Part shown: positions 9,930 through 40,612 of the stretch, one piece after another | Position numbering within the stretch: the first letter of the stretch is position 1 | Layout: every line of letters starts with the position of its first letter | Sequence record: MT446393.1 | Direction: 5' to 3' (one strand) | Length of the DNA stretch: 40,612 nucleotides | From: Escherichia virus TH16 | Made by a program: the position numbers and the translations under genes | Notes under the pieces: model-generated | Seen by the model: the letters and a program-made list of their open reading frames with translations, nothing else | The model's database searches: none | What the model was told of the DNA's origin: nothing

Positions 9930-10193
9930 TTATTGCACTCCATATCCAGTGTCATTATCTTCCGTAGCGGAGAGCACCTTATCGTACTCTGCGTTCAGTG
10001 CCTCCATATCAGCGAGCGTCTTCTCGTCAACAGACACCTTGCTTAGCACGAAGTTGTGACGAGCCAGTAGCTTCTCAATGGCGTTGTAAAGCTGAGGTGA
10101 ACGCTTAGTGTCATCCCGCAGGTCTTGCAGCATGAGTCGAGCACGTTCAGTATCTAGCATTAAGAGGAACTTCTCTAAGTCCATCTGCGTCAT
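9930..10193 (-). CDS. gp18: Terminase small subunit / DNA packaging protein A (87 aa)
   Basis: Similarity to T7 gp18 (LMLDTERARLMLQDL...SPQLYNAIEKLL). Confidence 0.8.
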   Translation of the reverse strand: MTQMDLEKFLLMLDTERARLMLQDLRDDTKRSPQLYNAIEKLLARHNFVLSKVSVDEKTLADMEALNAEYDKVLSATEDNDTGYGVQ

Positions 10194-10384
10194 GTTTTAC
10201 CACCTCCTTTAATCGTTTTGTAGACTAGCACACCAATCTGGGCAACGGTGTACGCGATAGCTGCAACGTAGAACCATTCGTTCAGTGTAAGTCCGAAGAA
10301 GAACCTACTGGCACCATCAGCCGCAGCGGTCCCGACGATAGGAGAGGCTTTAAGGACCTCATTCTTGAAGTCTAACTCAATCAT
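10190..10384 (-). CDS. gp17.5: Holin (64 aa)
   Basis: Similarity to T7 gp17.5 (FFFGLTLNEWFYVAAIAYTV). Confidence 0.85.
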   Translation of the reverse strand: MIELDFKNEVLKASPIVGTAAADGASRFFFGLTLNEWFYVAAIAYTVAQIGVLVYKTIKGGGKT

Positions 10385-29035: not shown

Positions 29036-29905
29036 TTACATGGATGGTGTCCACAGGATGACCTCCTTGGACTTAGGGTCGTAGTCGGAGGCTCGACAAA
29101 TACGAGCTACCTGAGCTTGGACCAGAAGTTCCTCCTCGGTCATCCCAGCTTTAGCAGCCAGAGTCACCATGCAGTCCCACAGCGTCATGTCTTCACGCTT
29201 CGGATACTTCTTCCACTCCGTCTTAATCTGGCCTTTATTCTTGCCAGTCTTAAGCTCACGGCTCTCCTGCACGAAGTAGTACGGCTCGTCAAGGAACGCA
29301 CGAGTGGTGTCCTCACCCATCCCCGGAATGCCACCGTAGCCATCTGTAGTATCACCCTTGATGGTCTGCTCCATGTGCCAGTAGTCTGCCTCAGCAGTCG
29401 TATGACTTAGGATTTCACCAGTGGTTAACCAGAAGAACTCACAGTTCGGGATGGTCTTGAAGTCCTTATCACAGGACACTAGAACCGCATGGTCGCATCC
29501 GACAATCTGAGGTCTGGTCCCGATGATACCCATACAGTCATCACCCTCAAGCGTAGGACGCAGGAAGCTGTTGAACCGTGGGTCAGCCATCACTTCGGCT
29601 ACGAACTTCTTGTAACCTACAGGCTTGCGAGAACCTTTACGGTTGGCCTTATAGGTAGGCAGAACGTCCTTACGCCAGTTAGCGTCATCAGTGAAGCACA
29701 TCACAATCTTAGCGTATTTCCACGCCTTGCGCTTCTTAACGATTTCAGCGATGGTGTTCTCAAGGATACGACGAGCCTTGGCATGGTCGCAGATAAGGGT
29801 ATAAATATCATCACCCCAATCTGTCTCGTCCTCAGCAGCAGCCATAGATGAAAACACTAAGTAGTCACCATCCAGAACCAGAGCTATCTTCTTATTCGAA
29901 GTCAT
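29036..29905 (-). CDS. gp6: 5'-3' exonuclease (289 aa)
   Basis: Similarity to T7 gp6 (CDHAKARRILE, NWRK, YKANRK, CDKDFKTIPNC, LWDCM). Confidence 0.9.
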   Translation of the reverse strand: MTSNKKIALVLDGDYLVFSSMAAAEDETDWGDDIYTLICDHAKARRILENTIAEIVKKRKAWKYAKIVMCFTDDANWRKDVLPTYKANRKGSRKPVGYKKFVAEVMADPRFNSFLRPTLEGDDCMGIIGTRPQIVGCDHAVLVSCDKDFKTIPNCEFFWLTTGEILSHTTAEADYWHMEQTIKGDTTDGYGGIPGMGEDTTRAFLDEPYYFVQESRELKTGKNKGQIKTEWKKYPKREDMTLWDCMVTLAAKAGMTEEELLVQAQVARICRASDYDPKSKEVILWTPSM

Positions 29906-30344
29906 CGTCCAGACCTCCTGTAGCCATAGCGACCGTAGCTGGCATCAAGGAAACTTTCGGCTCCTCAATACGTTCGAGAGTCACCTCAGGCTTCAGCCAT
30001 TTGTGGGCGAACTCATGGGCCATGTCGTTGTCCTCTGAGTTTAGGTGTGACATCAGGCTCCAGAAGTTTGAAGAAATCTCACTCTCCTTCTCAACCTGGC
30101 GATATACTCCCCAGTCATTTACCTCTGAACCATGACTTTCACTCCACATACCACTGGCTACGATGGTAAGCCCGATGAATGGACGCCACTCATAGGCCTC
30201 AACTGGAGACTCGGCGTAGGACTCAACGTCCTTCTCAGTCAGGGTGAATGACCAAGAGGCGTAGAACTCATCGTACTTGCGGTGCTCCATATCACACTCG
30301 CCCATTTCAAGGATCAGCTCTTTCAGACTTTCAGGTATCTTCAT
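29892..30344 (-). CDS. Strongly acidic hypothetical protein (150 aa) in the position of T7 gp5.9
   Basis: Track ORF begins with GTG at 30398; ATG at 30344 has GGAGG RBS; about 32 Asp/Glu versus about 12 Lys/Arg. Confidence 0.55.
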   Translation of the reverse strand: MKIPESLKELILEMGECDMEHRKYDEFYASWSFTLTEKDVESYAESPVEAYEWRPFIGLTIVASGMWSESHGSEVNDWGVYRQVEKESEISSNFWSLMSHLNSEDNDMAHEFAHKWLKPEVTLERIEEPKVSLMPATVAMATGGLDDDFE

Positions 30345-30550
30345 AGACAGCCTCCATGTTGGTTCAGGAACTTGGTGCCAGCAGCGGTAATTTCCCACGC
30401 ACCGTTGTTACGCCCATCCATAGACAGGCAGCTTAGATGTCCACGACTCGCAGCCTCAGCCACAAGTGCAGCGTTGTTGCGCACATAGTTGGACTGGAAG
30501 GTCTTCGGGCAGGACTTAAGGGCCGCTAGGACCCGTAAGTATTCACTCAT
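30341..30550 (-). CDS. gp5.7: gp5.7-like protein (69 aa)
   Basis: Near-identical pattern to remembered T7 gp5.7 (MSEYL...AIKSCPKTFQSNYVRNNA.LVAEAASRGH). Confidence 0.85.
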   Translation of the reverse strand: MSEYLRVLAALKSCPKTFQSNYVRNNAALVAEAASRGHLSCLSMDGRNNGAWEITAAGTKFLNQHGGCL

Positions 30551-30831
30551 TGCTTGAACCCCACGCTGATATTAGAGATGGTGGCACCGTCTTCCGGCAG
30601 CTCATCTTTCAGCTTGGACGCCAGCACAGACTTCAGGTGCAGCTCAATGGCTGCTTCTACCCCGTGCTCTACGGCAGTCTCTACCAGCTTACGTGTCAGC
30701 CCATCCTGCTTCTCTCCAGCGATGTAACCCTTTGTCATCTCAACCAACTCCTGAGAGTAATACTCTACCTCATCTACCGTAAAGACAATCTTCAGGTCGA
30801 ACTTACAGGTCAGGCGTTTTGTCATAGCCAT
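30547..30831 (-). CDS. gp5.5: gp5.5-like protein (94 aa from the ATG)
   Basis: MAMTK start as in T7 gp5.5; AAGGAG RBS; track ORF begins upstream at 30888. Confidence 0.7.
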   Translation of the reverse strand: MAMTKRLTCKFDLKIVFTVDEVEYYSQELVEMTKGYIAGEKQDGLTRKLVETAVEHGVEAAIELHLKSVLASKLKDELPEDGATISNISVGFKQ

Positions 30832-31144
30832 TAGCTTTCTCCTTCTTAATAAGTTTGCGCTCACGGTTCGTCTTGATGACGTGATCACGCTTTGGAATAC
30901 ACTGTAGGTGTTCTACGTTACAGCACCCACGATTCAAACACAAATGGTCTATCTCATAGCCATCTGGTATAGGCCCACGCTTCTGTTCCCACACCCATCT
31001 GTGAAACATAAACGCCTTGCGTCCAGGCTTACGGGCAGAGCCTACCGTGTACCGAAAGTATCCATCATGGTTTCTACGATGTGATACACAGACGATACAT
31101 CCAGTAGGCATCTTATGGAAGCGTAAGGTTGCTACACCTCCCAT
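30803..31144 (-). CDS. HNH endonuclease (113 aa) directly after the DNA polymerase gene
   Basis: Cys-rich HNH core (CIVC ... IDHLCLNRGCCNVEHL ... RDH); AAGGAG RBS. Confidence 0.8.
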   Translation of the reverse strand: MGGVATLRFHKMPTGCIVCVSHRRNHDGYFRYTVGSARKPGRKAFMFHRWVWEQKRGPIPDGYEIDHLCLNRGCCNVEHLQCIPKRDHVIKTNRERKLIKKEKANGYDKTPDL

Positions 31145-39377: not shown

Positions 39378-40338
39378 CTGGTGTCTCCTCCATGTAGGTG
39401 ATTTGACAAGCCCACCCATTGTAGTAATCAGGGTCTGACTTAACGTTATCTGTGAACTCGGACATAAGGGCGCGACTAATGTTAGTTGCGGAGACCTCCA
39501 TCCCGTTCTCAAGCATCACGTCAAATCCGATGACCATGCCCTCGTTGGCTAGGCCATCCGTACCCCACACAGGGCGCACAACATGACCGTCTGCCTCTTC
39601 GCTCGGCTTCATCTTCCACATGCCAGACTTCTTGCCACGCTTCCAGCGTCCAAGAGGGTCTTTAACTACCAGACCTTCTTGCCCATCTGCGCGCTTCTCT
39701 TCGTACAAATCCTGAAGAGACTCAAGGTCGTACACTGTATGACTCTCAGATAATACCCAGTCGATTTCCGGGAAGTATTTCTGGAGGAGAGGGACGATAG
39801 CTTCGGCCTTCAGGCGAGTGACGCTATGGATAGGGCCTTCGGCTTTCGGGTCGGTGATGACGTTAAGGTCCACGATACCGTAGACGACCACCTTGATATG
39901 GGCTCGGTCCAGCCTGAACTGAGTAGTCTTGGACTTGAGGTCCCAATCGCCATCGTGGAAGTCGTAGTTTTTAGACTTGACATACTTCGTGCGAATGAGA
40001 CCTGAAGACGTATTGAAGTCCACTCCTTTTACCATGACCTCGCCATCAATCATCAGGCCAGTGCCTTCGTATCCAGCCTGCTTCAGGAACCACAGCCAGT
40101 CGCTAGACTCGGTCTCCCAGAGGTCCTCTCGAGAAGTGTCCAGCCAGCTCAGGGCCGGAAGTGACTTAGACTCACGGCTCAACCATTGGGTCTCACCAGT
40201 AGGGAAGACCGGGAGGTTCAACCGGACACCATCGTACTTCACTTCAGCTTCCAGCGACCCAGCAGCTTCCAGAGCCTTCTTAACGCCAGACTCAGAGTAA
40301 TCTACAGCGCGGTGCGGGTTAGTTTTAATAGTTGTCAT
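39307..40338 (-). CDS. gp1.3: ATP-dependent DNA ligase (343 aa from the ATG); its 5' part is duplicated at 1..394
   Basis: KYDGVR adenylation motif and strong similarity to T7 ligase (MKPSEEADG, DGSLRHPSF..RGTEDNP); GGAG RBS before the ATG at 40338. Confidence 0.95.
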   Translation of the reverse strand: MTTIKTNPHRAVDYSESGVKKALEAAGSLEAEVKYDGVRLNLPVFPTGETQWLSRESKSLPALSWLDTSREDLWETESSDWLWFLKQAGYEGTGLMIDGEVMVKGVDFNTSSGLIRTKYVKSKNYDFHDGDWDLKSKTTQFRLDRAHIKVVVYGIVDLNVITDPKAEGPIHSVTRLKAEAIVPLLQKYFPEIDWVLSESHTVYDLESLQDLYEEKRADGQEGLVVKDPLGRWKRGKKSGMWKMKPSEEADGHVVRPVWGTDGLANEGMVIGFDVMLENGMEVSATNISRALMSEFTDNVKSDPDYYNGWACQITYMEETPDGSLRHPSFYQWRGTEDNPTVKI

Positions 40339-40612
40339 TGTGTTATCTCCATGTGTCGAGTTGGTTAGCGAGACAGTTAAGGAAGCCTGTGGCAGTGTTG
40401 TACAGTACGTCTTCATCGCGGTGTGCGAAGATCTTAAGCGCGAAGATGTTACCAGCTCGGTCCTCGACTTGAAGTCTCATGAACTCTTTCCGAAGATGCG
40501 CCTCGTACCAGTCCTGCTGTATCACGCAGAAGTCTAACTGATATAGTCGGTTACACGCTGCTTTGAAAGCGTTTAGGTTGCCACTGTAAAGTCTGCCCAT
40601 AGCGTTATGCTC

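Follow-up and report, generated by a model that had tools for sequence, protein, structure and literature searches.

A strongly acidic protein at the gene 5.9 position of Escherichia virus TH16 shares one module with gp5.9-family proteins

T7 gp5.9 is a DNA-mimic inhibitor of RecBCD (PMC9836394). In this study, we analysed the gene that occupies the corresponding position in Escherichia virus TH16 (MT446393.1; the whole analysed stretch of 40,612 nucleotides is called the window). The window is a Kayfunavirus (K1F-like, a relative of T7), and its genes lie on the minus strand. The gene encodes a strongly acidic protein of 150 amino acids (aa). Sequence comparison places this protein outside the gp5.9 family and assigns it to an uncharacterised phage family, phrog_4382, which has one module in common with gp5.9-family proteins. 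The original prediction had described the protein as acidic and located at the gp5.9 position, and had suggested from these two properties a DNA-mimic anti-nuclease or another anti-defence protein. The observation was confirmed, and the functional interpretation is partly supported. As therapy candidates against E. coli K1 and Klebsiella, Kayfunavirus (K1F-like) and Przondovirus (KP32-like) phages are in wide use. A recognisable gp5.9 is missing from many of these phages, and the 150-aa protein is a concrete candidate for handling RecBCD and the systems that guard it.

The gene, its position and its family

The open reading frame (ORF) is a real gene. A program-made ORF list begins this frame at GTG 30398 (168 aa). 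We placed the true start at ATG 30344 because of the spacing of a GGAGG sequence in front of it (Table 1), the overlap of this ATG (30344-30342) with the gp5.7 stop codon (30343-30341) as ATGA, and the MKIP or MNIP start of all homologues. Substitutions relative to three homologues (87-90% identical) numbered 31/28/89 at codon positions 1/2/3. This third-position bias indicates that the gene is coding and under selection. Its last 14 nucleotides (nt) overlap the gene 6 exonuclease (ATG at 29905). The translated protein contains 32 acidic residues (9 D and 23 E) and 12 basic residues (8 K and 4 R), as had been counted originally. Its isoelectric point (pI) is 4.43 and its net charge is about -20. 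No other coding-strand ORF of 50 aa or more is as negatively charged per residue.

Since gp5.7 lies on one side of the gene and the gene 6 exonuclease on the other, it is in the T7 gene 5.9 position, and this part of the original prediction was borne out. Bases 1-668 of the window were 100% identical to bases 39945-40612. Because the final 668 bp duplicate the first 668 bp, the window is a complete genome of ~39,944 bp. The duplicated ends are either an assembly overlap or a terminal repeat, and because of them one ORF start (MKTYCTTLPQASLTV...) occurs twice in the window. A scan of the complete genome with gp5.9-family hidden Markov models (HMMs) found no other gp5.9-like ORF. The 150-aa gene thus stands in for gp5.9.

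The protein was a full-length match to phrog_4382 (E 2.2e-45; residues 1-130 aligned to positions 6-129 of the 130-position profile). This family carries no function label in PHROGs, and its named members are all "hypothetical protein". No match was found by sequence in Pfam, NCBIfam or the Protein Data Bank (PDB) with either the single protein or a 103-sequence profile. Homologues in Kayfunavirus showed 81-99% identity. Those of Klebsiella Przondovirus KMI1 (gp21) and Dickeya Aarhusvirus Mysterion showed ~40% identity and occupied the same slot between gp5.7 and gene 6, as did a family member on a divergent metagenomic T7-like contig. Homologues of Felix O1-like Ounavirinae (~27% identity) lay between nrdD and nrdG, and metagenomic phages of ~90 kb carried forms of 105-117 aa in a replication-gene region near a family A DNA polymerase. 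Other members are Citrobacter phage Moogle gp14 and bas63_0071 of the BASEL phage Bas63. The family is near-universal in Felixounavirus, where it was found in about 190 records (188 at an identity of at least 80%). When 1.8 billion representative proteins were searched exhaustively with HMMER, only 41 clusters were returned. Nearly all were standalone proteins of ~100-160 aa; the rest were a small number of shorter fragments and a weak hit to a protein of 1124 aa. Among 185,579 cellular species genomes scanned, the one family match lay on a metagenome-assembled contig. These searches suggest that phrog_4382 is essentially a small phage-only family.

The acidity was found throughout the family. 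In 158 members, down to ~20% identity, the median net charge was -15 on ~113 aa, the median pI was 4.4 and the maximum pI was 5.6. Such conserved acidity is as expected for an inhibitor of nucleic-acid-binding proteins. Family-wide conservation was restricted to two motifs, EHR(K)YS.FY and G.W.DS.G. The 150-aa protein has M-E-H-R-K-Y-D-E-F-Y and G-M-W-S-E-S-H-G at these places, in agreement with the wider pattern (K/E)EHR(K/R)(Y/G)S.F(Y) and G.W.D(S/D).G. Residues G15, R22, F27, G65, W67 and G72 were invariant in the family alignment. The core domain, the hairpin motifs and the acidity are thus common to the other phrog_4382 members and the 150-aa protein, whereas a disordered tail is added in the Kayfunavirus members.

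The shared module and allele exchange at the gene 5.9 position

An AlphaFold2 (AF2) model of the 150-aa protein was built from 103 sequences. As shown in Table 1, the model divides the protein into a core domain, a helix-loop-helix, a linker with a last strand, and a tail. The core was predicted to contain the elements H5-14, E16-21, E26-34, H37-43, H47-56, E59-68 and E72-86 (H, helix; E, strand), with two conserved beta-hairpin turns at E20-H21-R22-K23-Y24 and G65-x-W67-x-x-S-x-G72. The two helices that follow were predicted at residues 89-98 and 103-116 with a predicted local distance difference test score (pLDDT) of ~76, and the second is ended by P119. In the family alignment, strand 120-125 lines up with the last strand of shorter members, which completes their fold. 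The tail is particular to Kayfunavirus-like members; Przondovirus and Aarhusvirus homologues have none. It contains a short hydrophobic motif, L-x-P-A-T-V/K-A-A/M, which was kept in homologues of ~50% identity (P0029, P0031, P0033 and P0037) and may be a short linear interaction motif. Fold comparison of the AF2 model gave no significant match to any known DNA mimic or solved structure. DNA mimicry is a candidate property of the modelled protein.

By tblastn, residues 88-127 were similar to small proteins of phages, and some of these proteins carry a RecBCD-inhibitor annotation. One of them is CLB_P1 gp5.8, a 78-aa protein encoded in exactly the same slot of the sister phage Kayfunavirus CLBP1. 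These small SHLN-type proteins (phrog_6163) are true members of PF25708 (Phage_T7_Gp5_9). Further SHLN-type members are Pseudomonas phage PPpW-4 ORF19 and Erwinia phage Pistou gp113, the latter annotated 'putative host recBCD nuclease inhibitor'. A profile comparison of the long family with the small SHLN-type family using hhalign gave a match over 30 columns (Prob 97.7%, E 1.4e-12), spanning residues 88-117 of the 150-aa protein and residues 4-33 of CLB_P1 gp5.8. The phrog_6163 profile also matched residues 89-115 of the 150-aa protein (E 1.6e-4). At its invariant positions this module (F..L..HLN.E.N..A..F) has the same residues in both families: F, L, H, N, E, N, A and F.

The small SHLN-type family was in turn matched by hhalign to T7/T3 gp5.9 (Prob 98.4%, E 6e-15), only over its C-terminal half. 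In contrast, hhalign of the long family against T7/T3-type gp5.9 gave nothing (Prob 0.2%). PF25708 (gathering score 24.5 bits; positive controls scored 27.8-71.2 bits) did not match the whole 150-aa protein or its residues 85-150, even at E <= 10, and the SHLN-type HMM aligned to the protein only at HMM positions 3-29. The three profile-profile results indicate that the 150-aa protein has in common with the gp5.9 family only the N-terminal helix-loop-helix. The original statement that similarity to gp5.9 is not evident therefore holds for T7/T3 gp5.9, to which hhalign rejects homology, and fails for residues 88-117, since these share ancestry with the module at the N-terminus of many PF25708 proteins. 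An alignment by MAFFT that paired FWSLMSHL with VWNDIQGYI of T7 gp5.9 was also rejected, since Pfam and hhalign both put the gp5.9 domain after the SHLN motif.

The two kinds of protein that carry the module differ in architecture. Both are acidic. In Kayfunavirus they occupy the same slot and have the same DDDFE ending from the gene 6 overlap. In SHLN-type proteins the N-terminal module runs into a long helix and the GVDNW(D/S)GY motif that defines PF25708, whereas the 150-aa protein carries the module as an insertion near the C-terminus of an unrelated domain. The AF2 model of CLB_P1 gp5.8 consists of helix 3-16, a loop and a 30-residue helix at 23-52. Within phrog_4382 the module was confined to members from T7-like phages, and a beta-hairpin, VPExxIPAHxVxxW, replaces it in most members. 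The module is therefore an insertion that a single family branch carries. In T7-like members it is the most conserved part of the protein, with a pairwise identity of 0.74 compared to 0.46 for the core domain. An origin of the module by recent fusion or recombination was rejected, because nucleotide similarity was weak (17 nt at 82%) and core and module occur together in members that are only ~30% identical (P0257 and P0265).

We then compared the slot between genomes. Homology to CLBP1 by blastn stopped at 30341 (the gp5.7 stop) and resumed at 29909 (4 nt before the gene 6 ATG), and the flanks were 94% identical on the gp5.7 side and 88% identical on the gene 6 side. Przondovirus holds both alleles, the long form in KMI1 and the small form in RCIP0029, where the annotated features around the small-form match include a 5.5-5.7 'fusion protein'. 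Kayfunavirus LS2 (MN518894.2, L062 1150-1350) has a ~180-nt frameshifted remnant of the 150-aa gene in the slot. The LS2 fragments EKDHRKYAE and GLWSDTYGSEVNHWDVYRQVQKETEMSSNFWS are in different frames, and the remnant is either a pseudogene or a sequencing error. A 39.8-kb metagenomic contig (P0028) encodes a 91-aa in-frame deletion allele in which residues 1-52 are joined to residues 112-150. The deleted stretch takes out half of the core domain and almost the whole SHLN module, leaving only module residues 112-117 (EFAHKW). The LS2 remnant, the 91-aa allele and the allele swap suggest a dispensable accessory gene, and by these comparisons the 150-aa gene is a swappable, dispensable cassette. 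HMM scans of five complete genomes found the long protein without a gp5.9 domain in the window, KMI1, Mysterion and Moogle, and the reverse in CLBP1. In the complete T7-like genomes examined, the 150-aa gene and gp5.9 genes appear mutually exclusive. The slot thus holds a natural allelic series of T7-type gp5.9, T3-type gp5.9, the SHLN-type 78-aa protein and the 150-aa protein.

The C-terminus of the protein reads ...GGLDDDFE, and the DDDFE ending noted in the original prediction is present. The 78-aa alternative alleles end in ...EDDDDFE, and the Przondovirus and Aarhusvirus homologues do not have this ending. Because the conserved gene 6 initiation region encodes DDDFE, we regard it as a by-product of the gene overlap. 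It lies in the gene 6 start, also ends the unrelated 78-aa allele and does not occur in other genera; on these grounds its value as a functional signature did not stand, and mimicry of the acidic tail of SSB or gp2.5 was rejected.

A different arrangement was observed in Erwinia phage vB_EamM-Y2 (L057 2953-3595), in which the SHLN-type gene gp58 is overlapped by gp59, encoding an acidic protein of 130 aa. Foldseek matched Y2 gp59 to the model of the 150-aa protein at prob 0.99 but E 0.036, a weak resemblance to the core domain, and hhalign gave only 19%. From the modelled fold, Y2 gp59 is a lead for a distant family member beside a gp5.9-like gene. The same overlap of SHLN-type and acidic 130-aa genes was found in Pectobacterium phage PM1_033/034 (L059), and the related phage ST32 is without the second gene.

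Possible function and its alternatives

We give about an even chance to the proposal that the 150-aa protein is a small acidic stoichiometric inhibitor (a decoy) of a host DNA-handling machine or defence, with an accessory role in host takeover or counter-defence. Its expression would be that of the DNA-metabolism (class II) genes, and its translation is coupled to that of gp5.7 on one side and gene 6 on the other. In T7-like phages, the cassette is the alternative to gp5.9, so its leading candidate target is RecBCD or another DNA-end-processing nuclease. Module residues 88-117 may be a common docking or assembly element, and the acidic alpha/beta body (residues 1-87) would replace the acidic coiled coil of gp5.9 and occupy a DNA-binding surface. 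RecBCD is the leading candidate target because of the slot, the lack of another candidate in the genome and the module common to the gp5.9 family. RecBCD as the specific target is a tentative assignment, well below an even chance. More doubtful still is the broader proposal that phrog_4382 is a second, structurally unrelated class of inhibitor of RecBCD or the DNA-end machinery, built on a new acidic alpha/beta fold, with the 30-residue hairpin as a portable docking module grafted either onto this fold or onto the gp5.9 coiled coil.

The 150-aa protein shares with T7 gp5.9 the slot between gp5.7 and gene 6, translational coupling and strong acidity; it is three times larger than gp5.9 and has no sequence or profile similarity to it. 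Structures of T7 gp5.9 are PDB 8b1r (with RecBCD) and 9gmb/9gmd (with MukBEF). T7 gp5.9 is a dimeric parallel coiled coil (PMC9836394), whereas the 150-aa protein was predicted to be a globular alpha/beta domain with a short helical hairpin. Lambda Gam, Ocr, ArdA and Ugi are, like the 150-aa protein, small, strongly negative and phage-encoded, with early or middle expression.

It has been reported that T7 gene 5.9 is conditionally essential (10.1101/2024.10.10.617714). It has also been reported that gp5.9 triggers sensing by retron Ec48 (10.1101/2025.06.06.658234) and by Sir2-HerA type III (PMC13434337). Such sensing would be a plausible selective reason to swap the inhibitor. If the broader proposal is true, phages with an "anchor plus acidic body" design could exchange the body and so escape guards that sense gp5.9, such as retron Ec48 and Sir2-HerA. 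The family would then contribute a new fold to the few known among inhibitors of RecBCD or DNA enzymes, together with a transferable recognition module. If the inhibitor proposal is false, phrog_4382 would still be a gene that nearly all Felix O1-like phages carry.

Several results weigh against a gp5.9-like inhibitor. In addition to the failure of hhalign to connect the long family with T7/T3-type gp5.9, the 150-aa protein has neither the coiled coil that is the DNA mimic in T7 gp5.9 nor the GVDNW motif. A DNA-mimicking parallel coiled coil would need a helix of ~30-40 residues; the module helices of the 150-aa protein have 10 and 14 residues, the second compared to 30 in CLB_P1 gp5.8. Most family members, namely the 105-117-aa forms and the Felixounavirus forms, are without the module. 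One of 36 IMG/VR loci (L048, from an 88-kb phage) has both a family member of 113 aa and a PF25708 protein (Pfam E 1e-16). The latter is a 109-aa protein with an N-terminal PF25708 domain and an uncharacterised C-terminal extension, and the spans of the two are 1211-1543 and 9980-10324. Because L048 carries both, the core domain is not simply redundant with gp5.9. In addition, a search of the literature found no paper on the phrog_4382 family and no experiment on any member.

A further point comes from Bas63. The authors of PhageMaP took this phage, from its annotation, to be without a RecBCD inhibitor, and saw high recombination (10.1101/2024.10.10.617714). As Bas63 has bas63_0071, its high recombination is a weak and indirect argument against RecBCD inhibition by the module-less branch. 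Together with the co-occurrence in L048, the Bas63 remark suggests that the core domain may have a different target. In Bas63 (MZ501086.1, L067 69-464), bas63_0071 (HMM E 2e-33) lies two genes upstream of nrdG and five genes downstream of nrdD. Since Bas63 is the model Felixounavirus of genome-wide knockout screens, fitness data for a relative of the 150-aa gene should already exist. The text of the PhageMaP paper does not mention bas63_0071 (10.1101/2024.10.10.617714).

A different target may be considered for the whole protein. The protein could act on a host complex or defence unrelated to DNA-end processing, such as a MukBEF-type SMC complex, a restriction-like system or a gp5.9 sensor, and the slot could be a recombination hotspot for accessory genes. 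Previous reports showed that gp5.9 has a second target, MukBEF (PMC7617805), and that DNA mimics inhibit broadly (10.1101/2025.06.06.658234). The exact breakpoints of the cassette site agree with a hotspot, and the family co-occurs with a gp5.9-domain gene in the larger phage (L048) and possibly adjoins one in Erwinia phage Y2. However, this explanation is a sub-case of the host-inhibitor proposal and does not contradict it. No other candidate RecBCD inhibitor occurs in those complete T7-like genomes examined which have this protein, and the module ties it specifically to gp5.9-family proteins. We consider a target of this kind unlikely.

An accessory role in the DNA metabolism of the phage itself is somewhat less likely again. 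In that case the protein would, for instance, work with or regulate the gene 6 exonuclease, the DNA polymerase or recombination, or nucleotide supply in Felix O1-like phages. The genomic settings are in line with this role: translational coupling to gene 6, the place between nrdD and nrdG in Ounavirinae, and the replication-gene region near the family A DNA polymerase in the ~90-kb phages. The near-universal presence in Felixounavirus also points to a core gene more than to one shaped by an arms race. However, the neighbours differ by lineage (the exonuclease in T7-like phages, nrd genes in Ounavirinae and unknown genes elsewhere), and gp5.9 is likewise coupled to gene 6 without being its partner. 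In addition, the gene is decayed or carries a deletion in some Kayfunaviruses and swapped for a gp5.9-family gene in others, which is unlikely for a cofactor of an essential enzyme, and the protein is extremely acidic with no nucleic-acid-binding features.

The conserved hairpin turns EHRKY and GxWxDSxG could equally be a ligand-binding site, which is a further point against the inhibitor proposal. The protein would then be a small-molecule binder, such as a sponge that sequesters an immune signalling nucleotide, or else a small enzyme, with the two turns forming the pocket and with charge and slot incidental. The family-wide conserved K19, E20, H21, R22, S25, Y28, W67 and D69 and the glycines do place polar and aromatic residues at the two turns, which are probably on the same sheet edge judging from the AF2 strand order. 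The size of 100-150 aa and the phage-only distribution are like those of known sponges, and the co-occurrence with a gp5.9-domain gene in L048 suggests a distinct function. We consider this explanation the least probable, since neither structure nor sequence resembled Tad1, Tad2, Acb2 or a nucleotide-binding fold. The conserved residues may serve the fold itself, as turn glycines, core aromatics and salt bridges, and the explanation does not account for why the most conserved part of the T7-like members is the gp5.9-family module.

Features and neighbouring genes

Table 1. Features of the 150-aa gene, its product and its neighbours in the window
Feature	Position	Strand	Basis
150-aa acidic protein, complete coding sequence	29892..30344 (stop codon 29892-29894)	minus	translation, composition, codon bias, phrog_4382 match
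Ribosome-binding site GGAGG, 6 nt 5' of ATG	30351..30355	minus	sequence reading
Residues 1-87, conserved alpha/beta core domain	30084..30344	minus	AF2 pLDDT ~90
Residues 88-117, helix-loop-helix "SHLN module" (NFWSLMSHLNSEDNDMAHEFAHKWL)	29994..30083	minus	hhalign, phrog_6163, AF2
Residues 118-128, linker and predicted last beta-strand (VTLERI), AF2 strand 120-125	29961..29993	minus	
Residues 129-150, predicted disordered tail (PKVSLMPATVAMATGGLDDDFE)	29895..29960	minus	pLDDT <50
Variable cassette, no nucleotide homology to CLBP1	29910..30340	minus	blastn
Overlap with gene 6 initiation region, encodes terminal D-D-F-E	29892..29909 (gene 6 ATG 29905-29903)	minus	CLBP1 homology
gp5.5-like gene (phrog_1452) and gp5.7 (phrog_1334)	5' neighbours of 150-aa gene	minus	PHROGs
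Gene 6 exonuclease (phrog_107, PF02739), then gene 6.5 (PF10911)	3' neighbours of 150-aa gene	minus	

Positions 20000-40612 of the window showed 96% identity to GenBank MT350292 and 92-94% identity to other Kayfunaviruses. The gp5.5-like and gp5.7 proteins (30344-30831, minus strand) were seen by PHROGs (phrog_1452, phrog_1334 and phrog_17900) and fell below Pfam detection, PF11247 Phage_T7_55 included. An HNH homing-endonuclease gene (PF13392, E 2e-18) was found at 30803-31144 on the minus strand, with the DNA polymerase on one side and the gp5.5-like gene on the other. Gene 5.3 of T3-like phages has this placement.

The DNA polymerase reading frame is broken in Kayfunavirus CLBP1 (OZ035730.1, locus L004 36-2502). 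Its parts are, in order, a 571-aa N-terminal part (cut at the locus start), a 131-aa HNH endonuclease ORF and a 57-aa ORF matching the polymerase C-terminus. From this order, gene 5 of CLBP1 looks like a gene split by insertion of a homing endonuclease. Finally, the records named "Enterococcus phage EFA-1" and "Staphylococcus phage MBBL139" are typical Kayfunavirus sequence, and "Staphylococcus phage SA1" is typical Felixounavirus (GenBank MT350292.1, OR786095.1 and GU169904.1). The hosts stated for these three records are probably wrong, or the samples were mixed.

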